From Folioceros fuciformis (lineage: Eukaryota): a stretch of DNA of 32,676 bases. A program made the translations under genes and the position numbers. The notes under the pieces were generated by a model. The model did not search any database. It was not told the origin of the DNA and was given only the letters and a program-made list of their open reading frames with translations. This document shows, piece by piece, positions 1,672 to 31,270 of the stretch. The stretch is taken from positions 560,983 through 593,658 of the forward strand of contig JBNGIO010006316.1 of assembly GCA_049999805.1 (NCBI GenBank), in the 5' to 3' direction. The number at the start of each line of letters is the position of its first letter. The stretch's first letter is position 1.

Positions 1672-3885
1672 TCAGAGGGTCCGTGGCACCGTAGTGGTGC
1701 GGCCCCCGTTGGCGCCCGACTCCAGCAGGGCTTCGATGACGGCAAGGTCGTGGAGGCTCTCCGCTACCGAGCTGCGGGGTTCTGCGTCCTCTGTCGCGCA
1801 CTCTTCAATCACGTCCCGCACGAAGCACTTCACCTCTTCTTGCAGTCCCTCGAATGGATAGAACACGGTTGTGGTGATCTCTGTCTCCTTTTTCGCCTCT
1901 GTCGAAGATAGGTGAGTGACCTATGCCATGGGAATGAGTACGAGAGGGTCAGGTAACCGCTGAAACAACTGAGCGGTAGGAAGCGATTCTTGGTTGTTGA
2001 CTTACTAGGTAGCCCGGACGTGAGTCTCTGGTCCCTCGTGAAACCTCCACAGTTCCTTCAGTTCCTACTACTCGCCAGAGGACCTGCGTCAGTTGACATG
2101 GTAAGCCTCATGTGAGAAATGCTATGGTGCAGCAACAGGTAGATGACTGGGAGGTGGAGACAGAACAGGTGGATGGGTACCTGGCGGGAAGTGGAAGCCC
2201 ATGACATGACGAGTACCCCTGGGCAGCCGTTTTCGAGTGTACTGCAAGCGCCATCACAGGGTTCAGCTCAGACTATGAAACTGATCAGCAATGACGTAGA
2301 GGAGTGGCTGCAGCGATTGCACCCTACAAGATTGCAGATACAGTGTCAGGAGGTGGCAAGCTCGGATCAGCGTGTGTTGTGATGGCGTTGACTGATATGA
2401 CGTCAAGCCCTGTGATCTGCAAACCACGAGACTCATATCAGGGGGAAAGGCACCTGAAGGGCCTTGCAGAGTAATACACACGAGCCGAAATACTGCTTCT
2501 CGATATTACCAGTCGGAGGCCTGCTACGAAGTGGACACCCCCATCCTTGATAAATGCTCCCTGCAAAACGATGAGGCAACACTATTTCACAGCTTCCAAG
2601 GATGCCTACCTACCGATGTCCCCATGCCGACACCACGCCTGCTCCAGGGATTTGGATGCCTCTCACAAACTGGATGCGCTTACTCCTCACACCTGAAAGG
2701 CAGGGTCCCTGCGCCACGCGCTTTTGTAGTAGGGATTTGAAGACTGCATGGGGGATTCAACGATGACTTGCACGTTCACATAACGCCCAATATCCTCTGC
2801 AACAATCACGGCCCCCTGCAGGAATGTGGAATTGCCGCAACTTCCGATTACCAACATGCTCAGCAGGCTTACTTTGACAAACGCAAGCGCTGAATCATTC
2901 CCACATACCGCGATCAGCCCAGGTTCGAAGCGGTAATTTTCTCCCACTGCCCAGATGGGTGCACTGATGCGAGGCGCGAGCACTTCGTCGTACATTCGGA
3001 TCACATCAAGTACTTCTTGCACACCTGCGGACACCAAGTAATAGCAAACTCGGCAGTGATTACCTGCTCAGTCTTAAAATGAAAAGGTCGTGCGCTACAA
3101 CATGATCATCGGTACAGCAAACTGAAACAGCTAAGAAAACAACACAAGTAGCTTTCTGGAATGAACTTACTTGAACCCACAGGCTTCTCTGCAACCATCA
3201 ATCATGTAACCACGGAAACGACTTAGAAAGGATGTTGAACATTTCAACCGGACAAGGAAGTTGAGAGCAGTACAGGAAAGCAAGATCAGTGCTGGCGAAG
3301 TCCTGTCTTGTAAGAGAGTTGGTTACCACCTTGGAGCACATGTTTTCCTGCCTGCAATGCTCGGGAGACAATCTGCAACTGCAAGGCAAAAGAGAGGACG
3401 ATGGAGAAAACGTGCAAACATTTGCTCCTACAAAGCAGGCACTGTGTAATTGCGGTGGAGGATCCGAAATTTGTGCTAACAAATGCCTCAGTCAACCTTC
3501 TGAGGTAAGGAGAGTGAGGCCCTACCTGGACTTGAGGAGGCAAAACAACAAAGACCCCGCGCACACTAGGATCCTGCAAAATCTCCTCCAATCCTTCTTC
3601 CCCCCACTTAGGTTCTGCATTCGGATAAACAGCTTGTGCTTGCGAGAACACTTCCACAGCTGCTTCCTGTTCAATTACGGTGAAGGTTCATCTCCCACAG
3701 GTTTGGAGTGTGGAATGGCGACAATGACAGCGAAGAAAGAACTTCCGGCCAAGGAGATATACCTGAGATCGGCTCCACACAGCTTTGAGGTTAACGGGAA
3801 GGACATTAAGCAAGGGCAAATAGTGCAACCGAGCGAAGGTGCCCGCTCCGAGCAATGCAAATCCAAGATCTGCTCCCTCCCCCAT
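1672..3885 (-). CDS. Gfo/Idh/MocA-family NAD(P)-dependent oxidoreductase, multi-exon
   Basis: Exon 1 reads MGEGADLGFALLGAGTFARLHYLP (Rossmann motif). Later exons give GLEEILQDPSVRGVFVVLPPQVQ, RALQAGKHVLQ, IWAVGENYRFEPG and NPYYKSAWRRD. The C-terminal exon reads SLHDLAVIEALLESG, with stop at 1672. Short GT-AG introns; not all exon borders were resolved. Confidence 0.88.
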
Positions 3886-7459: not shown

Positions 7460-8878
7460 TCAGGCCGCCAATCCCAATTCTTTCCTTGTTTTGGGAATGA
7501 AGAGCGCTTTGCTCTTCATCGAGGAGAGGATTTTGCTCTGGAAAACGCCGAAGGGAAGATCTGCCACAGCGTTGTTCCGGCCCAGGCTGACGATGAATAT
7601 GGGCGGCCCTGACTTGTACAAGGCCGGCTTGGGGTTTTTCCCCGACTTGATGAGCGTCTTGATGTTCTTCGCCACCACCTCCGTATGCTTGATGGTGTAA
7701 TATCCTTGCTTGTTCTCCTGCAAAGCCCGCCACTCACACTATTGGTCCAGGGAAGGAGATGCGAACTCAGGAAATTTGTCCAGAGGAATTGTGGGCACCT
7801 TGATATTGGTAATGTCCCCGACGGCGAACACGTTCTCCTTGCCCTCAACGACCAGAGTCGAGGAGTTCACCTTCAACCTGCCGTCAGAGTCCACAGAACT
7901 CGCCAGAGACGAGTCCTGGAGCCAGCCGCTGCCCACCTTCTTCCCGATGGCCACGAACAGGGCATCGGCCGACAGAGACTTCCCTGAAGCGGTGGAGGAT
8001 GGTACCTCCGTTGAGCCGGGCTGGACTTCCACTCGGTCGTTCAGGATCACCTCCACCTTCCTCGACACCAACCAATCCAAGGCCTTCTTGCTCGCTTTCG
8101 GCCGGACAAACTCGATGAGCCTGTCCCCACCGTGCACCAGCGTCACCTTCTTGTCCGGGAAGTCGGTGACGATCTCGCCCGCCAGCTCCACGCCCACCGG
8201 GCCTCCTCCCACGATGAGCACGGAGTTGGCAGCAACCAGTCTCTTGTGCTCTGCCACACAGAAAGCCAGCCAGCCCAAGCGAGCCTCAGCACAAACGGCC
8301 AAGTCACCCATGGCCAGCCACCACAGCCAGCCCAGACGGATCCGTGTCGTATCCTACACGTCGACCCACCTGTCTCGAGGAAGGCGACGCGCTCCCCTCT
8401 AGTCGCAGGCCCCGAGAAGGTGGTGCCCGTGGCGATGATGAGGAAGTCGTAGGGCAAGGAGGAGCCATCGCTCAAGGCCACCTCCGTGTCCGTGACACTG
8501 GTGGCGCTGCTGTGCACCACGGTGCTCTTCTTCAGGTACTCGGAGTGCAGGAAGATGGCCTTTTCGGCAACCTTGGGCTCCACGATCAGCCGCAGGCCAG
8601 CGTAGGGGACCTCGAAGTAGTCCTTCCTGCGGGGAGGCCATCATCACACATCCACTATCCCCATCAGAGCCAGTTCCCCTGCTGCACCCAGAAAGGGTCC
8701 AGAAAAGAAAGCACAACGGCTCCCATTCCCAATCCGAATCCCAGCTCCCGCAGGCATAAACCAGGGGCACCTACGGATCCACGACAGTCACATTCGCCAC
8801 ATTCTCCAAGGCCTTGGCCGCATAGGCGCCTCCCACGCCTCCTCCAACAATCACCACGTTCTTCCTCGCATCCGCCAT
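7460..8878 (-). CDS. FAD/NAD(P)H oxidoreductase of the AIFM2/FSP1 (apoptosis-inducing factor homolog) family, multi-exon
   Basis: Exon 1 (ATG 8878) reads MADARKNVVIVGGGVGGAYAAKAL. Later motifs are LPYDFLIIATG, VLIVGGGPVGVELAGEIVTDFPDKKVTLVH, NVFAVGDIT and IVSLGRNNAVA. Stop at 7460. Confidence 0.9.
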
Positions 8879-15504: not shown

Positions 15505-16500
15505 TCAATTGTGGTCTCCACACGAACATACGCCACCACCCTTGAAGTGACGAACTCTGTGGGCGTCTCTAATTATGATCTCCCTATTCTCAATCTTGGC
15601 GATGATCTTCGTGCCTCTGTGGCAATGGTCACACATCCGCAGATTTTTCGTTACCAGCAAGGTGGAGCCTTCGGGCGTGTTGAGGAGACCATAAGCTAAT
15701 GCAAGCTTCTCGGCGTGTCCACCAAGAGCATCATCCTTGTTCGGATCTGGGTCCAACATCATGCCTGCATCATGCTCCATTCATAAGATTTAAGCTCCTT
15801 AGCTTTGCGCGAGTGTCCTCTGTCATGTCCCACGCAATGAATTCATGCATCTTGTGGTCCACTTGGATCGAGGCCTTTGCAGGCTTCTTACGAGCTCCTG
15901 CATTCTGTCGCATGCATGTTCTCTACTTTATCTGCGTCCTGCCACTGTCCGTCCTTGGCATATATATTGGACATGAGCACATAGACACCAGCCTGATTGG
16001 GTTCCAGTTTGACCACGCGATCAAAACATATCCTTCCTAGTTCTGCGTGACCATGCTGTCTACAGGCAGTCACCAGAGACATCCAACCCACAGTAGGATT
16101 TTCATAAGGCATTGTTCGAAGAAGTTCTGCCTCGTCCAGTTGTCCTGACCTTCCAAGAATATCAACCATGCTATTGTAGTGCTCAACTCTTGGTAAAATG
16201 CCATACTCCTCCTCCATCGTTCGAAAATAGTGACTGCCCATGCTCACCAGGCCCACATGGCTGCATGCAGCAAGGAGGCAAGAAGACGTAGCTCGCGGCA
16301 TCTGGGTCCACCCCCTGTTGCAGCATGTCCTCGAAACACTGCACATCCATTTCCCAGTCATTGGGCTGGCCATATGCATCAATGAGGGCAGTCCATGTCA
16401 CAGTGTCCCTGGTGGACAGTCTGCTAAACAGTGTCTGACAGTCATCCATGCTCCCACATTTTGCATACATATCCACAAGTGCATTTCCCATCACAGGCAA
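15505..16500 (-). pseudogene. PLS-class PPR-DYW:KP editing-factor pseudogene (several frameshifts, 5' truncated)
   Basis: Fragments NALVDMYAKCGS, LAACSHVGLV, HYNSMVDILGRSG, then KKPAKASIQVDHKMHEF (15860-15889 and onward), GHAEKLALAYG, KNLRMCDHCH and DAHRVRHFKGGGVCSCGD. These lie in at least three different frames. Confidence 0.9.
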
Positions 16501-17780: not shown

Positions 17781-17930
17781 GTCCAACCCCAAGAGGTATG
17801 GATCTGCAGATGGCACTGTAAAGAGCGTGACATAAACAATGCGGTTGAGAAGAGGAAATTTTGCACATCTACCAAGAATCACCATGGCTCTCATACCAAA
17901 TTTAATTTGTGTTTCGAAGTACCACATGTA

Positions 17931-18474
17931 CCTTAGATCCACATTCTCACATCCTTTAAGGCCAAGAATGGCATCATTCCTCTCCTCTGCCTTTCTTTCC
18001 TCTCCTCTAGTCCCCACAGTTTTGAGATCCACATTCTCACATCCTTTGAGGCCAAGAATGGCATCATTCTTCTCCTCTGCCTTTCTTTCCTCTCCTCCAG
18101 TCCCCACAGTTTTGAGATCCACATTCTCACATCCTTTGAGACCAAGAATGGCATCATTCCTCTCCTCTGCCTTTCTTTCCTCTCCTCTAGTCCCCACAGT
18201 TTTGAGATCCACATTCTCACATCCTTTGAGGCCAAGAATGGCATCATTCTTCTCCTCTGCCTTTCTTTTCTCTCCTCCAGTCCCCACAGTTTTGAGATCC
18301 ACATTCTCACATCCTTTGAGACCAAGAATGGCATCATTCCTCTCCTCCGCCTTTCTTTCCTTTGAGGCCAAGAATGACATCATTCCTCTCCTCCGCCTTC
18401 TTTCCTTTGAGGCCAAGAATGGATCATTCCTCTCCTTCGCCTTTCTTTCCTCTCCTCTAGTCCCCACAGTTTTG
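17931..18474. repeat. Minisatellite, 90-bp unit, ~5 near-identical copies plus rearranged partial copies
   Basis: tttgagatccacattctcacatccttt recurs at 18021, 18111, 18201 and 18291, with a variant at 17931. There are no unique spacers. Confidence 0.97.
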
Positions 18475-18584
18475 CGTACATGCCCACCAGGTAGGTGGCA
18501 GAGTCATTGAGGCAACATGTGTACCATAGATGAGCTAACCTGAGTAAAAATGGGAGGCCGACCTCTCTATGAACTCGAAGTTTA

Positions 18585-20626: not shown

Positions 20627-21617
20627 ATGGCATTGCGGAAATCAGCAGGCACTTTTGGAAGGGCTCCTTCTCAATTGACTTCAAGGAGGCGAGCTTTGCC
20701 AAGCGAGCCAGCCGAAAGATGGGGGCCTTCAGTTGGACAGGCAGCTCATCCAACAGGATGGGTGGATAAAGGCGGAGCTGCCAGCCAGGTTCGTCAGCAG
20801 GAGCTATTGTGGGGACAGTTCTTTCGGGACCCAACACTGTGGTGGGATAGCAGGCATGCCAAGAAAAGTAATCGTTTGCCTGACTTCCAGCACAGAGAAT
20901 CCCATGAGGGGATCTGGCTGCACCACCTCTACAAGCCAGCCTGAGTGAAGTCGAAGCTTGCTGCTTGGGATGTGGATATGGGTCGTGAGGTCTCTAAGCC
21001 CAAACCTAGCTTGCCCGACGGTCGGGACAATCTCAGGCCTGCAGGATTGTGATGGCTGAAACTGTGAGCAAGCTATGTCATGAGGGCCTGCTCACTGAGG
21101 CTGCTGAGGCTCTGGAAGTTCTGGCGCAGACACACTCCTGTGTACCCAAGTCTCAGTTTTATACTGTACTTAAGCAATGTGTGTTGAAGAAGAATCTTGT
21201 TCTGGGTCGTCGGTCGGGTGCATGGTTTGACGATGGACAAGGGGTATCAGTCGGACACGTTCCTGAGCAATCACATTCTGCGAATGTATGCTTAGTTTGG
21301 CAGGTTGCAAGACGCGATAGATGTGTTCACCATGGTTGCTGAACCAGATGCCTTCATCTGGTCTTCCATAATCTCTGCACATGTTAGACATGGACAAGAC
21401 AAAAGCAAAGCAGGCCGTGCAGCTATATCCACGGATGCGCAGGTCCAGTGTGAAGCCAGATGGTCATCTGTTCGTGGCATCACTTCAGGCCTGTGCAAGG
21501 GGAAGGGACCTGAGAGCTGGGCAGCAGGTGCATGCTGATATCTTGGCCAGTGGGCTTGAGCCTGATTTGTTTGTTTGTAATTGCTTGGTGGACATGTATG
21601 CAAAGTGTGGCAACTTG
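20627..21617 (+). pseudogene. N-terminal part of a PLS-PPR gene carrying an OSB-type PDF motif; disrupted by stops and frameshifts
   Basis: An Arg/Ser-rich N-terminus precedes ELLWGQFFRDPTLWWDSRHAKKSNRLPDFQHRESHEGIWL (20801-20920), then PA*VKSKL with TGA at 20942. PPR motifs follow: FYTVLKQC, DAFIWSSIISAH, FVASLQAC and CNCLVDMYAKCGNL. Confidence 0.8.
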
Positions 21618-21668
21618 GTACAGTATAATGGCCGACTTGAAGGAACCCAACCCAACCCAACCCAACGC

Positions 21669-22165
21669 AATGCTTGTCGAGGCGCTGGGCGTCTTGTCAA
21701 AAGCATGAAAGCGCAGGAGTCAAGCACTGCCAACCCTACAGCAAAGCCAAGGTGCCAGCAGTGCTTGACTTTCACCTTGGCTTAACTTTACAGCAAAGCC
21801 AAGGTGTCAGAGTTTGAGGGAAGCCAAGCACAGGGGTCGGGCCCCGCCGACCTTGCCACTACCAGCAAAGCCGAGGGGTCAGACGTTCAGGAAAGCCAAG
21901 TTGTCAGAAACAGAGTGCGACTTTTGTCTTCTGTGAAAGACTGCCTCACAGTTTTCTCCACCAGTCCTGGAGATGCATCTTTGAGAGATGTCGAGGAAGG
22001 CACAAACCTCATCATAGCTTTGATGGACGCCATCATGGAGGGCTCTGAAACAGAAGATGTCTTGAGCATTCTGACAAGCTTCATTGGCATGGCGACGGAC
22101 GTGGAGGTCCAAGACAAAACCAAAGACGGGGACTATGAGAAGAAATATCAGTGTCCTGAGTTGCG
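21669..22165 (+). pseudogene. Caspase-domain fragment (catalytic-Cys motif, linker and p10 subunit), paralog of 26865-27623
   Basis: NACRGAGRLVKSMKAQ, then after a frame break PADLATTSKAEGS...KDCLTVFSTSPGDASLRDVEEGTNLI...TEDVLSILT...QCP. DNA similarity to 27249-27585 is obvious. Confidence 0.88.
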
Positions 22166-22395
22166 CGCAGCACACTTACCAAAACACTATACTGCTCTCG
22201 ACCACCCCCGACTCCTGTCATGCCTGGCTATAGTGAGTAGCATGTGGCCAGGGCCTGCAATGCCGTCAATCGAGAGTCAGGTATGCTCTTGAGCTACATG
22301 TTGTTGGTCTATTAAATACTGCCTCTGATAAGTCTTGTCACTTCTCCTTTGCCTGGCATTCTTTCCTGTTTGGCCAGAGAGACCTCTCACAGCAT

Positions 22396-23417: not shown

Positions 23418-26400
23418 ATGGCGGAGCAGGACGACTATCACTGGCTCTCTTTGCCGGGAATGCTGCCAGAGCTGCTGGCAGATCTGGAAGGGCACGCCTT
23501 GACCGAACTCCCCAACTTGGGCGGAACGGAGTATGGCGATTTCTTCAGAAGGAGAGCTTCAACGAGGATGGATGGCAGGTACTGGCGAGTGCGTAAGCAG
23601 GTATTGACAGCTGTTGGCCAGTGCCGCAGTCTCCGCCAGCTGAAGATATCTGAACGGTGGGAAATCGGCATCGGTCGGGAGGACGAATGCGCGGTTCTGT
23701 TGGAGGGCCTGGCATCCAACCCTTCCCTGGAATCTCTTGATCTGTGTGACTGCTCAGGTTTTGGAAGGCTGGCGGGTTGCAAGGCCCTAGGCCAGCTTAT
23801 TGCTTCTAGTCGCAGCTTGCGACAGCTGAAGGCATGGGACATTGGACTTGGTACCGCTGGACTTGGTGCCCTGGTCGATGGCTTCAACCAGGATTCTGTC
23901 CTGGAGCATTTGAGCCTAAACTTTAACAGAGTGGGAGATGGTGAAGGGGCACAGCACCTGGCTCGCATGCTGGCCACCGCTCCCCGTCTCAATGTCCTGG
24001 ACCTGTATGGGATCGGCATGGATGAGGAGGGAGTCCAGTGTATTGCGAACGCTCTTCCGCTCCATGCCTCGCTCCGGACACTTCAGTTGAGTGGTGATAA
24101 ATACCCGAGTGACAGTAGTACAATTAGGGGTTCCGTACAGGGCAGCCTGGGGCTAATGAGCACCTTGTGCAAACTGGCTTTCACCCGTGCTGATGCTGAG
24201 GCTGATGCTCCCATATCTGGGGTCACCAAGCTGACGTTGGATGTCGGGAAGGGAGACGAGCCAGGCCTGGCCGACGCCCTTGCCGGAATGTTGCGCACCA
24301 ACGATTGTATCACGGAGCTTCGGATCAGTTGTTGTGTTGTCAAGTTCGGCCTGGACGCCTGGCGCCACAACTCCACCCTCTCCACGCTTTTCTTGTCCGA
24401 CTATGAGCGTGACGGGTCGTTAAGTGAATTTTCGATGTCGTTTCTGGAGTGCAAATCATTACGCATCTTGGCTTTGTACAGGATAACGGGGCCCTCTTTC
24501 TTCAAAGCGGTGATGCAGTCTTTGGCGGAAAATACATCTTTGAATGAGTTCCGCATTGTGGATTGCAAGGGACTTGACGATGAGCTATTCAGAGAATTGA
24601 TGCAGTCGCTCCAAGTCAACACCACTTTGCAGGAGATCAGCGTACGGGCTACGAATTGGGAGACGGAGGGAAAGCAGGCCATCATCAACGCGACGTTGGC
24701 ACGCAATTTTAGTCACAGGGCCTACTGGCCTTTGCTTTTGGAGGGGCATGAGGCTGTGAAGCCCAGGGTCGGCCGCCTTTTCCTGTGCGGTGCACCTTAC
24801 GCAGGGAAGACCACTCTCCGAAACACCATGATCACCGCATGGCGCGCATGGCAACCACACACATCACATTGTACAGGAGCCGCTTCAGCCAAGCGAGTCC
24901 AATCGTGGGAACAACTGTTTCTAGGTTGGAATGGTTTCTGGTTCGGTAATGTTCCACTCATTGGAGCTGCATCATACAACCAGGTGGGAACTGTTCCCAG
25001 AACGGAAGGCATAGAAATCGATGTGCTGCGCAACGACGACGAGATGGAAGTTACCATTTGGGATCTGGCTGGACAAGCTCACTACCGTGCTCTGCAAGAC
25101 TACTTGTTCCCGAGCTTCAACCAGACATGTGTCTTCCTGTTCACATTCAACCCACTTGATGCCCACAAGCCTGGCGAACCCCTTCCGTCCGATGAAATGC
25201 TGCTGGACAAGTTCAGGAACGGCTTCAAGTTTTGGCTTAGATTTATCCACTCCAATTCTCGCAACGTGGGTTCCTGTTTGCCTCGGGTATTTGTGGTTGT
25301 CACTCATAAGGATCGGATGGAGGATTTGGACGCTAAATATCTGGTTGGTCTGCTGCAACCAGTCGTGGAAGAGTTGGCCAAGACTTTCGAGGAGGTACTT
25401 CTTATCAGGACAACGCCTTTCTTCATGGATGCTCGATCTGAACAGACTGTGCAGCCTTTGCTGGAGCAGCTATTCCAATCATTTCAAGAGCTATTTGCGC
25501 TTCCTTTGTTTTCGGTCCCGAAGGCGTGCAATCGATTGAGTGCTGCTTTGACTCACTGGGTATCTCAAAATCCAGGTCAGCCTCTGGTGACCAAGGAGAG
25601 GTGCAAAAACCTGTTTAACGCACATGATGAGCAACGCCTTCAAGCAATTCTTGCCTATCTGCACAACGCAGGCCGGGTCATCTGGTTCCAGGATGCAGAT
25701 GCAGATGCTGTGGTGGTAAATCCACACTGGATCAGTCATTCGTTCCTGGGCCATCTCACTGAGTGCCTAGCCGGACAGTCTTCCCTGGGGAGATCGCGAG
25801 ACCGTGGATTTGTTGCTGAAGACCTCCTCAACGACACCTTAGCCCGGATCCTCAAGGACACGCACGCGGCCGACAGGATTCGTGTCGAAGATTTGGTATC
25901 ATTGATGATGAGGCTAAACTTGTGCTATCGAGATGACGCGAATCCAAGGCCTGGATTCTTCGTTCCGTTCACCTTGGATGACGCCGAAGGTAAAGCTCTT
26001 CGTGGGGAACGACAGCTGCACTGGGACGGGGTAACGGCGGGCCAGTACAATTACGTGGGGAGGCGGCTACAATGCCGAGATGAAACCAAGACGTTTCTCG
26101 GTCCAGGATTCTTTCCAAGATTCCAAGTACGTTACCTTGTGAACTGTCTCTGTAGATCTGTCGCTAGTGATTTATCCTCTCTTGGGTTTCCTGACTATAT
26201 CGCCAACGGTTGTGCATTGCAGGTCAAATTACGACAGATCTTGTTCGATGGGCTCTCCGGTATGGAGTCTCATCAATATAGCATTGCCCGTAACTTGATA
26301 ACATTTAAGTATGGTGGTATGGATGTGTTCTTGGAGAGTAGCGGGGATATTGGGGAGGAGACCGGGGATATCGGGGATCGTGTTGACATTTTGATGAGGT

Positions 26401-27626
26401 CACTCAGGAGGAAGGACGAAACGATCCAGTTTCTCCAGAGGCATATTGTTGCAGAGCTGAGAGCATTTTGTGCTTCTCCTGAAGGTAGTCCTGGAGTTGA
26501 GCTTGTAGAAGGGATCATCAGGACCGAGTGTGTAGAGAAGCTCACACCTTGTATTCACCGACACAATCAATCAGTTCTCACACACAGGTTGATGGAGTCG
26601 TTTCTCAAAAGCCTGCAGACCTCTCAGATTTCCTCCGGTTCGGATCTGCCTCCTCACTTCCACGTCTGGCCAGCTGCAGAAAGGCCTGAAGCCAGTCTAC
26701 GCTGTGCACAAGAGGATGCCAGAAACTTCTTAAGTAGCGGTGAGGTTGAAAGTGTTTTGAAGACGTGGCGGACAGGGCTACCGCGCAATGCAACGAGTGG
26801 CCCTTCAGCTGGCTCAAGTCACTCACAGGGATCGCCTCACATCGAGTCAGTGCAGGAATTATCATATCCAAACCAAAGGGTGAAAGTAGGTGAGCGGAGA
26901 GGTCTGGCAATGATAGTCAGCATGGAAGACCACAGACATGGAGGACAGGTAGACAGAGGGCGACTTGAAGCTCTCTTCGAGATGTTGAATTTTGAAACAG
27001 ATATCGTGGTGAGCGGTCCTAAGGAAGGGAAATCAAGGTTGAAAGCTATTCTCAGGGTCCCTCACCTAGCAGAAGACGATTGCTTTCTGTTTTGCGTGAA
27101 CGCCCATGGTGGGACTGATGAAGACGGAAGGCAGTATGTTTTCTCAGGTGAAGCAGACAAGGCGGAGAAGCTTTATGTTGAAGAAGATATTTTGAAGCCC
27201 ATCGCTGAATGCCAGTATTTGGCACACAAGCCTAAGGTGGTCATCATAAATGCTTGTCGAGGAACTGGCCGTCTTGTCAAAAACATGAAAGCACAGGGGT
27301 CGAGCCCCGCCGACCTTGCCACTACCAGCAAAGCCGAGGGGTCAGAGGTTGAGGGAAGGCAGGGTCCCAACAAGAGAACTCGACCCTTGTATCAGGCGAA
27401 AGATATTCTCACCGTCTTCTCTACCAGTCCTGGAGATTTATCCTTCAGAAATGTGGAGGAAGGCACAAACTTCATCGTATCTTTCATGAGAGCCATCATT
27501 GACCACTCTCGTACCGAAGATGTGGTGAGCATTCTAACAAGAGTGACTCGCGAGGTCACCGAAATGCAGAACGTGCAGTGTCCCCAGTTCGTCAGCTCTC
27601 TCACTGGAAAGCTATACTGGTCTTAA
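23418..27626 (+). CDS. TORNADO1-like ROCO protein (RI-type LRRs, Roc GTPase, COR) with C-terminal caspase (peptidase C14A-like) domain; probable 96-nt in-frame intron 26127-26222
   Basis: LRRs: SLESLDLCDC, VLEHLSLNFNRVGD, RLNVLDLYGIGMD. Roc: P-loop GAPYAGKTT (24789), RTEGIEI, TIWDLAGQ, VVTHKD. COR/TRN1-like: VVVNPHW, YVGRRLQCRD..TFLGPGFFPRFQV. Caspase from ~26865: RHGGQVD, DDCFLFCVNAHG, KPKVVIINACRG, DILTVFSTSPGDLSFRN, QCPQFVSSLTGKLYW. The 1402-codon ORF is uninterrupted. Confidence 0.9.
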   Translation: MAEQDDYHWLSLPGMLPELLADLEGHALTELPNLGGTEYGDFFRRRASTRMDGRYWRVRKQVLTAVGQCRSLRQLKISERWEIGIGREDECAVLLEGLASNPSLESLDLCDCSGFGRLAGCKALGQLIASSRSLRQLKAWDIGLGTAGLGALVDGFNQDSVLEHLSLNFNRVGDGEGAQHLARMLATAPRLNVLDLYGIGMDEEGVQCIANALPLHASLRTLQLSGDKYPSDSSTIRGSVQGSLGLMSTLCKLAFTRADAEADAPISGVTKLTLDVGKGDEPGLADALAGMLRTNDCITELRISCCVVKFGLDAWRHNSTLSTLFLSDYERDGSLSEFSMSFLECKSLRILALYRITGPSFFKAVMQSLAENTSLNEFRIVDCKGLDDELFRELMQSLQVNTTLQEISVRATNWETEGKQAIINATLARNFSHRAYWPLLLEGHEAVKPRVGRLFLCGAPYAGKTTLRNTMITAWRAWQPHTSHCTGAASAKRVQSWEQLFLGWNGFWFGNVPLIGAASYNQVGTVPRTEGIEIDVLRNDDEMEVTIWDLAGQAHYRALQDYLFPSFNQTCVFLFTFNPLDAHKPGEPLPSDEMLLDKFRNGFKFWLRFIHSNSRNVGSCLPRVFVVVTHKDRMEDLDAKYLVGLLQPVVEELAKTFEEVLLIRTTPFFMDARSEQTVQPLLEQLFQSFQELFALPLFSVPKACNRLSAALTHWVSQNPGQPLVTKERCKNLFNAHDEQRLQAILAYLHNAGRVIWFQDADADAVVVNPHWISHSFLGHLTECLAGQSSLGRSRDRGFVAEDLLNDTLARILKDTHAADRIRVEDLVSLMMRLNLCYRDDANPRPGFFVPFTLDDAEGKALRGERQLHWDGVTAGQYNYVGRRLQCRDETKTFLGPGFFPRFQVRYLVNCLCRSVASDLSSLGFPDYIANGCALQVKLRQILFDGLSGMESHQYSIARNLITFKYGGMDVFLESSGDIGEETGDIGDRVDILMRSLRRKDETIQFLQRHIVAELRAFCASPEGSPGVELVEGIIRTECVEKLTPCIHRHNQSVLTHRLMESFLKSLQTSQISSGSDLPPHFHVWPAAERPEASLRCAQEDARNFLSSGEVESVLKTWRTGLPRNATSGPSAGSSHSQGSPHIESVQELSYPNQRVKVGERRGLAMIVSMEDHRHGGQVDRGRLEALFEMLNFETDIVVSGPKEGKSRLKAILRVPHLAEDDCFLFCVNAHGGTDEDGRQYVFSGEADKAEKLYVEEDILKPIAECQYLAHKPKVVIINACRGTGRLVKNMKAQGSSPADLATTSKAEGSEVEGRQGPNKRTRPLYQAKDILTVFSTSPGDLSFRNVEEGTNFIVSFMRAIIDHSRTEDVVSILTRVTREVTEMQNVQCPQFVSSLTGKLYWS

Positions 27627-29844: not shown

Positions 29845-31270
29845 TTGATGGAGAGACTAAACTTGTGCTATGAAGATATGCGAACCCTAGCCCTGGATTC
29901 TTCGTTCCCTTCACCTTGGATGACACAGAAGGTAAAGATCTTCAAGGGAACGACAGTTGGTCTGGAAGGGTGGTACAGCACTCAAGTACACGTACTTAGG
30001 GAGGCGGCTACAATGCCGAGAGACTGGAAGGGTGGTACAGTGCACAAGTACAACTACTTAGAGAGGTGGCTACAATGCCGAGATAAACGAACACGTTTGT
30101 CGTCCAGGCTTCTTTCCAAGATTCTAGGTACGTTACCTTGTGAGGTCTGTGACACTTCGTTAGTGATATATGCTCTCTTTGGCTTTCATGACATGGCCAA
30201 TGGTTGTGCGTTGCAGGTCAAGTTACGACAGATCTTGTTTAATGGACCCTAGGGTATGAAGTGTCATCAGAATAGCATTGCCCGCAACTTGATCAAATTT
30301 AACTACTATGTTATGGAATTATTTTTGGAGAGCAGTGGGGATATTGGGGAGGAGACCGGGGACATTGGTGATCGTGTTGACATTTTGATGAGGTCACTCA
30401 AGAGCAAAGACAAAACGATCGAATTTCTCCAGCAGAGTTTGGTTGCGGAACTGAGAGCATTTTGTGCTTCTCCTGAAGGTAGTCCTGGAGTTGAACTAGT
30501 AGAAGGGATCATCAGGACTGAGTGTGTGGAGAACCTCAGGGAAGGAACCATCGTATCCAAAGTCAGTCACAGGGACCGCCTCTACTGAAGTCAGGGAAGG
30601 AACCGTCATATCCAAACGAAAGGGTGAAAGCAGGTCACGGGCGAGGTCTTGCAATGATAGTCAGTATAGAAAAAGGCAGAGATGGAGGACAGCTAGACAG
30701 AGGGCGACTCGACGTTCTTCTCCGTGGTCTGCCCTTGAAGTTTGAGATGAGTCTGTGTGGTGGACGATCTTAAGGAAGCGAAATCAACGTTGGAGCGCGT
30801 TGTCAGGCATCCTGACTTCGATAAGGACGATTGTTTTCTGTTTTACGTAAATGCCCATGGTGAGACTGAAGAAGATGGTAGAGAGTATGTTTGCTTAGGT
30901 GAAGCAGACAAGGCGGAGAAGCTTTATGTCGAGGAAGTTATTTTAAAGCCCATCGCTGAATGCGGGAATTTGGCAAACAAGCCGAAGGTGGTTGTCATAA
31001 ATGTTTGTCGAGGCACCGCCAGCCTTGCCACTAGCAGCAAAGCCATGGGCTCAGACGTTGAGGAAAGCCAGGGTCCCAGCAAGAGAATTCGACTCCTGTA
31101 TTATGCGAGCAACTTTCTCACCGTGTACTCCACCAGTCCTGGAGACTAATCTTTGAGAGATGTCAAGAAAGGCCCAAACTTCATCATAGCTTTCATGAAC
31201 GTCATCATAGCTTTTGTTTTTGTATGTTTGCTTTTGTTTGTAGGTGAAGCAGACAACGCCGAGAAGCTGC
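29845..31270 (+). pseudogene. Degenerate paralog of the ROCO-caspase gene (C-terminal COR plus caspase), with frameshifts, stops and internal duplications
   Basis: Retains MERLNLCY, WLQCRD, ESSGDIGEETGDIGDRVDILMRSL, ELRAFCASPEGSPGVELVEGIIRTECVE, GRGLAMIVS, DDCFLFYVNAHG, KPKVVVINVCRG and STSPGD. In-frame TAG at 30250 and TAA at 31147. Confidence 0.92.

Follow-up and report, generated by a model that had tools for sequence, protein, structure and literature searches.

A predicted clade of animal-type caspases in bryophytes, fused C-terminally to an expanded family of ROCO proteins in a hornwort and of plausibly ancient horizontal origin

The initiator caspases of animals (type C14A: caspase-8, caspase-9, Dronc and CED-3) are activated by dimerisation, and Arg87, Gln184 and Arg233 are the residues of aspartate specificity in caspase-7 (PMC4357240). 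That plants have no true caspase orthologues is given as an established fact in a 2026 review (PMC13272413). In the literature that we found, drawn mostly from outside the subscription journals, neither bryophyte caspases nor a fusion of a ROCO protein to a caspase is described.

ROCO proteins with a protease tail occur in brown-algal and SAR lineages, where the peptidase is IPR009003, which we take to be trypsin-like. These group 3 ROCOs have been proposed as immune receptors, and the word caspase is absent from the main text of the paper that describes them (PMC11378527). The COR domain's C-terminal half dimerises, and a bacterial Roco protein alternates between a monomer with bound GTP and a dimer free of nucleotide (PMC6337361). 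Prokaryotes have modules that join a sensor, a caspase and an effector, the last being a hydrolase zymogen (PMC12642450), and in bryophytes the alpha/beta-hydrolase is an executioner domain of NLRs (PMC11218826).

We found a gene for a predicted LRR-Roc-COR-caspase protein in the hornwort Folioceros fuciformis. It lies in the window (the whole stretch of DNA that was analysed, 32,676 nucleotides long) together with two decayed relatives. The features, all on the + strand, are as follows.

21648 to 22292, +: decayed caspase fragment upstream of the gene, joined to a PPR fragment (open reading frame, Pfam)
23418 to 27626, +: LRR-Roc-COR-caspase gene, two exons, 1370 amino acids when spliced (open reading frame, splicing and translation, Pfam)
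23418 to 24758, +: N-terminal LRR region, amino acids 1-447, predicted sensor (weak Pfam LRR_4 match, E 0.019)
24759 to 25496, +: Roc GTPase domain, amino acids 448-693 (Pfam Roc, E 4.5e-4, under the curated cut-off)
25497 to 26780, +: COR domain, amino acids 694-1089, split by an intron (Pfam COR-A, E 1.7e-8; homology to the caspase-less paralogue L042 as far as about 26780)
26127 to 26222, +: intron in COR, 96 nt, phase 0, GT-AG (family pattern and read evidence)
26781 to 26864, +: Ser/Gly/Pro-rich linker of 28 residues at the fusion junction (end of homology, composition)
26865 to 27623, +: predicted caspase domain of C14A type, intronless, p20 and p10 in one chain (Pfam, alignments, model)
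26934 to 26936, +: Arg1141, putative S1 arginine equivalent to caspase-7 Arg87 (alignments; role from PMC4357240)
27105 to 27107, +: His1198, putative catalytic histidine (alignments)
27249 to 27257, +: Asn1246-Ala-Cys1248, holding the putative catalytic cysteine and an Asn at the position of the S1 Gln (alignments)
27312 to 27314, +: aspartate of the disordered L4 linker and candidate site of self-cleavage (alignment; pLDDT below 50 at 136-164)
27447 to 27449, +: Arg1312, putative second S1 arginine equivalent to caspase-7 Arg233 (alignments; role from PMC4357240)
29791 to 31209, +: decayed second COR-caspase copy with frameshifts and stops, having the same intron, here 89 nt long, at 30128-30216

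The list of open reading frames shows 23418-27626 (+) as a single frame of 1402 codons, the COR intron being in-frame and stop-free in this gene. The intron is real. Its pattern recurs in 13 of the 30 family loci examined, with lengths of 85-96 nt that in seven of the 13 are not divisible by three. None of the sequencing runs is catalogued as RNA. An exact 96-nt skip occurs in a presumed-RNA run (on one contig, with 88% likeness allowed, and possibly from a paralogue) and is absent from two DNA runs of one sample. Thus the plant-type intron that an earlier note on this DNA had supposed in COR is confirmed. The features of a ROCO protein are also present, namely a Roc-COR tandem after LRRs, with the P-loop, DxxG and G4-like motifs retained in Roc. 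Pfam scores for these parts fall slightly below curated cut-offs, likewise for other bryophyte ROCOs, and in one caspase-less paralogue (L035) the LRRs match LRR_6. The COR domain is likely a dimerisation module.

The C-terminal domain matches Pfam Peptidase_C14 with an E-value of 5.9e-26 over profile positions 1-233 of 233, in one open frame, as the earlier note had described it. By sequence, its closest solved structures in the PDB are Dronc and caspase-8, and a profile made from 18 plant-like rows only matches caspase-8, caspase-6, caspase-7 and caspase-3 (up to 5e-34). A predicted model (pLDDT 86.9) has Z scores of 27-28 to caspase-8, caspase-9 and caspase-3, 22 to MALT1 and 13-19 to metacaspases, a ranking that is not independent of the sequence, as about 45 of the 63 rows in the folding alignment lie outside the plant clade and pull the model toward animal caspases. 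The Foldseek result agrees with this caspase-like ranking, and the model has a C-terminal strand at 236-239.

Arg1141, Asn1246 and Arg1312 align with Arg87, Gln184 and Arg233 of caspase-7, and His1198 and Cys1248 form the putative dyad. At the position of the S1 Gln (QACxG), Asn is found here and in most of the clade described below, as well as in several rows outside the plant clade, and Dronc has Phe. The domain thereby shares with animal initiator caspases the His-Cys dyad, the S1 arginines and the predicted fold. It is likewise one chain, whose L4 is long and disordered and whose large N-terminal part could cause it to dimerise. It differs from them in having no CARD or DED, in that its prodomain is an LRR-Roc-COR receptor, in the Asn that stands for the S1 Gln, and in belonging to a separate clade, at 24-35% identity, in a plant.

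The host also has ordinary type I and type II metacaspases. Plant metacaspases (C14B) share Pfam family PF00656 and the His-Cys dyad with the new domain, but there is no pairwise similarity to the host type I metacaspase (E 0.48), the S1 residues here are basic whereas those of metacaspases are acidic, and the fold scores to metacaspases are lower. The PADLOC caspase model matches the host type I metacaspase (2e-14) and not the domain studied here, and none of the bacterial caspase models of NCBIfam and PADLOC that were tried on it gave a match; the sensor-fused protease logic shared with the prokaryotic modules is an analogy only. Sequence and predicted fold class the domain as a caspase of C14A type in which one pocket residue is substituted, and place it nearer to caspases than to paracaspases or metacaspases. 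The view that it is not of the type usual in plant proteomes is upheld. We predict from the sequence that it is an aspartate-cutting protease, switched on by the receptor part to which it is fused.

At E<=0.001, a HMMER search with the caspase domain matched 1104 proteins; 150 of these were listed and 30 were looked up by name. Among these 30, every plant-like protein with a species name comes from a bryophyte, and the remainder are Logan, IMG or ENA proteins; none of the 30 is from an alga or a vascular plant. The named relatives belong to Marchantia polymorpha, M. paleacea, Riccia fluitans and Nothoceros aenigmaticus. Many other members of the clade (P0006-P0011, P0020, P0021, P0038 and P0047) are such Logan, IMG or ENA proteins. 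A profile search limited to proteins of 789-2250 amino acids returned two Marchantia proteins and one millipede protein, and a word-index search with the caspase region had no match among proteins of 771-2454 amino acids; neither search is proof of absence. The ESM Atlas gave only chordate-rich caspase clusters, both for the caspase domain and for the environmental protein P0023, and the Atlas taxa were discarded as evidence of origin.

In Marchantia and Riccia, the caspase is fused to alpha/beta-hydrolase domains (for example in Mp6g00860 and Mp6g00900). These proteins belong to the same caspase clade, and differ from the hornwort protein in this fusion partner, which is not a ROCO. UniProt labels the Marchantia proteins automatically as having a caspase family p20 domain, and we found no papers that mention the two Marchantia gene ids. 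Most members of the clade, in hornworts and liverworts, retain the dyad and both pocket arginines. One very divergent member, encoded at 2743-3816 (-) of locus L031, is stand-alone and intronless and has no catalytic His.

We built a caspase tree of 76 rows, comprising every full domain of the plant-like kind, 14 outsiders that were chosen and 38 rows picked at random from the 123 remaining. In it, a branch with support 97/93 sets the 22 plant-like rows apart from all 52 animal-type rows; in a tree of 30 rows the support is 100/98. Two environmental proteins, P0023 and P0045, stand next to the plant clade (89/91 in the 76-row tree and 99/96 in the 30-row tree). Nesting of the plant clade inside an animal subgroup is not seen in the 76-row tree, which is unrooted. 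Within the clade, four liverwort rows group at 100/100, and the data do not reject monophyly of the hornwort caspases (p-AU 0.32). P0023 carries, in duplicate, a Cys-rich C-terminal repeat that belongs to no Pfam family, and the hosts of P0023 and P0045 would bear on the identity of a donor.

The ROCO part was placed in a tree of its own, separate trees of the two parts having been proposed in the earlier note. All five matches of a Roc-COR search are Riccia or Sphagnum proteins, and the genome of Folioceros holds several ROCO genes that have no caspase. In a tree of COR ends (39 rows), the fused family is sister to one of these, L042 (95/93). Homology to L042, with 57% identity up to that point, stops at about window position 26780, which is within 20 nt of the fusion start (26760) that had been suggested. 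The C-terminal tail of caspase-less paralogues is missing from this gene. In those paralogues, homology also breaks at the very codon where the COR intron lies. With TRN1/TORNADO1-like plant ROCOs the gene has in common the LRR-Roc-COR order, an evident homology both to bryophyte ROCOs and to the caspase-less paralogues, and the break at this intron codon. Those plant ROCOs differ in that they lack the caspase tail and are put at one or two genes in plants (PMC11378527), as opposed to the large, decaying and fast-evolving family found here.

The linker at the junction consists to 50% of Ser, Gly and Pro, the highest share anywhere in the protein, but its entropy is just modestly low (rank 113 of 1342 windows). 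The linker postulated earlier exists. COR and caspase are in one exon across many contigs, and exon 1 extends for 2.7 kb without introns. These comparisons indicate that the ROCO part is native and that the caspase took the place of the tail usual for this type of gene.

The junction is not peculiar to Folioceros. The end of COR runs into a caspase in the Nothoceros transcript P0059 and also in P0007 and P0020. When the COR parts of the Folioceros family and of P0007 and P0020 were constrained to one clade, this was rejected (p-AU 0.02, in a test made after the tree had been seen). A single clade for the caspases of the fused and hornwort rows was not rejected (p-AU 0.26). Because the COR clade is rejected and the caspase clade is not, the sequences suggest that one caspase lineage was joined to ROCO proteins of more than one subfamily. 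That tails are swapped on the ROCOs of bryophytes is also evident in two Riccia fluitans proteins (P0001 and P0002), in which NB-ARC-LRR is followed by Roc-COR and an alpha/beta-hydrolase, making them NLR-ROCO hybrids.

Our preferred reading, to which we assign a probability of about 0.55, is that a native LRR-Roc-COR gene had its tail replaced by a caspase of a bryophyte lineage, which likely entered by transfer before hornworts and liverworts separated, and that the product is a one-chain sensor-protease. The element of this reading that concerns origin, a transfer in ancient times with a eukaryote as donor (either an animal or the lineage of P0023 and P0045), we regard as probable. It is favoured because a relic would require many losses and because bryophytes often take up genes (PMC12513842).

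A viral or microbial donor, which the earlier note had considered, received no backing from our scans. Three scans of IMG/VR revealed no relative, and neither did scans of phages, of plasmids and of 300 further Bacteroidota genomes. A first scan of GTDB yielded nothing, and a second only one AT-rich, exon-like fragment. This match (L074, 2863-3189) is an animal-looking caspase exon in an 11.9-Mb bacterial bin and is likely contamination. JGI metagenomes contributed two loci, of which L051 falls among the animal-type rows of the 76-row tree and L052 is a short fragment. Pattern scans of this kind reach only fairly close relatives, and cyanobacteria were covered without a genome-wide profile search.

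The strongest rival explanation of the origin involves no transfer: an animal-type caspase of an early eukaryote was passed down the green lineage, persisting in bryophytes and disappearing from algae and flowering plants. In agreement with such vertical descent, the plant clade is outside every animal subgroup, its nearest rows are the environmental proteins P0023 and P0045, and the composition of the caspase is host-like in GC3. For caspase-type proteins, which are reported from a foraminifer and from bacteria, an origin as early as the last eukaryotic ancestor has moreover been argued (PMC10565124). However, many losses have to be assumed, given that no algal or vascular protein is among the 30 looked up by name; reviews state that caspases are absent from plants (PMC10565124, PMC13272413), and foreign genes are often acquired by bryophytes (PMC12513842). 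The caspase tree does not separate the two histories, as it has no trustworthy root and lacks rows of known identity for paracaspases and for the C14A proteins of protists or bacteria. The earlier note had left the choice between transfer and relic open and had named a wide occurrence in streptophytes, with a species-congruent tree, as evidence against transfer. One of the two options must hold, and what has changed is the date, since the event likely predates the hornwort-liverwort split. The domain occurs in two bryophyte phyla, with the liverworts grouping together and hornwort monophyly compatible with the data, which agrees in part with that pattern; the spread seen here covers bryophytes and not the streptophytes at large. 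On balance, we consider a vertical relic rather unlikely.

Returning to the sensor-protease, we propose the following mechanism. A ligand would be detected by the variable LRRs, which would then shift the nucleotide state of Roc and the monomer-dimer balance of COR. Dimerisation of COR might then bring a pair of caspase domains into contact, in the manner of the platforms that recruit initiator caspases in animals. Tethered 28 residues after COR, the caspase could be switched by the state of Roc-COR, a proposal made because initiator caspases dimerise to become active (PMC4357240) and COR dimerises in a nucleotide-dependent manner (PMC6337361). The caspase dimer would cut after aspartate, possibly also within its own L4 loop, and so give rise to a defence or cell-death signal. 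Such an output is suggested by the evolutionary pattern of the family, by the partner domain in liverworts and, by way of analogy only, by the bacterial caspase-hydrolase modules. Catalytically dead paralogues may serve as regulators resembling cFLIP, which is an analogue for regulation of this type.

The family shows the pattern in question. Of 79 candidates in a scan of the genome, 73 were matches (figures that should not be read as copy numbers), in keeping with the earlier claim that the fusion was amplified, the fusion itself consisting of a tail replaced on a native ROCO. Twelve of the 30 family loci examined have an unbroken full-length caspase domain, and many further copies are broken, including two inside the window. 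Both arginines and the Asn are kept in all 12 full-length domains, and His and Cys together in eight. The four pseudo-enzymes among the 12, which have lost His or Cys, are L004, L008, L009 and L010; their changes are Cys to Ser, His to Phe (twice) and His to Arg, with the pocket arginines kept.

Between family copies, dS of the caspase domain is 0.06-0.2. Pooled over six copies, one of which has a stop and two of which are catalytically dead, dN/dS comes to 1.14 (0.95-1.37) in the LRR region, 0.57 in Roc, 0.40 in COR and 0.65 (0.47-0.95) in the caspase. As the interval of the LRRs spans 1, their value can be explained by relaxed constraint just as well as by positive selection. The variability of the LRRs suggests receptor-like evolution. 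The whole looks like birth-and-death evolution of a receptor family, in which purifying selection on the protease is weakly shown.

The main rival to the sensor-protease mechanism is that the caspase tail acts chiefly as a decoy or scaffold, that is, as bait for protease inhibitors or effectors of pathogens or as a dimerisation module, with catalysis being dispensable. The loss of His or Cys in four of 12 full-length domains fits this role, as do the catalytic alterations of P0020, P0021, P0038 and the L031 reading frame and a caspase dN/dS near 1 (0.62-1.04) among the three copies that are intact throughout. Nonetheless, most clade members have kept the dyad and both pocket arginines, and the L4 Asp is found in seven of the eight copies with an intact dyad versus one of the four dead copies, although these copies are related and not independent. 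We view a role confined to decoy or scaffold as improbable.

Far less probable still is a recent, lineage-specific graft of an animal, viral or microbial caspase, as cDNA or gene, into this ROCO. The sharp junction, with L042 being 57% identical up to it, the intronless domain and the young copies (as judged from dS) are what one would expect of such a graft. Yet the closest relatives are bryophyte or environmental proteins and not animal ones, the COR-caspase join exists in Nothoceros, the viral and prokaryotic collections named above contain no relative (bar the contamination in GTDB), and the identity of viral caspase folds does not exceed 16%. The name look-ups and the tree largely refute this idea, and a graft special to this gene, as the earlier note had envisaged, does not stand, given that the relatives in Nothoceros, Marchantia and Riccia form one clade.

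The lack of introns, once taken as a sign of foreign origin, is uninformative because the native type I metacaspase is also one intronless open frame and exon 1 of the present gene is itself 2.7 kb long. A foreign base composition was considered as well and rejected, as the caspase has a GC3 of 0.52, compared with values of 0.54-0.55 for Roc-COR and 0.57 for the type I metacaspase, and hence one that is host-like and close to that of the rest of the gene. An assembly artefact or animal contamination has a negligible chance, despite a fragmented assembly (87 Mb in 7240 contigs) and the position of the window at a contig end, and contamination is ruled out, because the gene is on a 594-kb contig with PsaD, PPR, DYW and cornichon genes, the exon uniting COR and caspase is repeated in many contigs, and sequencing runs of two studies cover the caspase family.

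Compared with the brown-algal ROCOs, the hornwort family thus appears to combine the same architecture, a ROCO with a protease tail, with a peptidase of another family. If our assignment is true, a clade of caspases with aspartate-pocket arginines in hornworts and liverworts overturns the statement that land plants have no true caspases. The ROCO-caspase layout would likewise be a new design of receptor and executioner, built on a GTPase dimer switch and not on an NLR. The matter is directly testable in Marchantia polymorpha, for which gene ids are in hand. More tentatively, and with odds that we place below even, bryophyte caspases as a whole might be Asp-specific immune executioners that derive from one acquisition from a eukaryote. 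In hornworts, a GTP-gated LRR-Roc-COR receptor would dimerise its own caspase and so constitute an inflammasome of one protein, with dead paralogues as regulators. This same caspase, in liverworts, may cleave and thereby activate the hydrolase effectors fused to it.

We now note some further observations on the genome and the window. Exons of LCIB score above the Pfam cut-off in the same genome; LCIB was reported from hornworts and from no other land plant genome known at the time (PMC8075897), so that these exons make a hornwort host very likely. The caspase copies in the window lie among PPR fragments, which hints at a shared mechanism of duplication. At 21372-22292 (+), one frame leads from a PPR fragment into a caspase fragment and then a p10-like piece. 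The region 15505-15780 (-) encodes a DYW deaminase domain with an HAE motif, which is typical of candidate U-to-C editing factors. About 15 kb upstream of the gene, at 7739-8640 (-), is a pyridine nucleotide-disulphide oxidoreductase, probably an ordinary neighbour, which presumably resembles AIF/FSP1-type proteins. Finally, a tandem repeat of about 96 nt at 17836-18510 has open frames on both strands.
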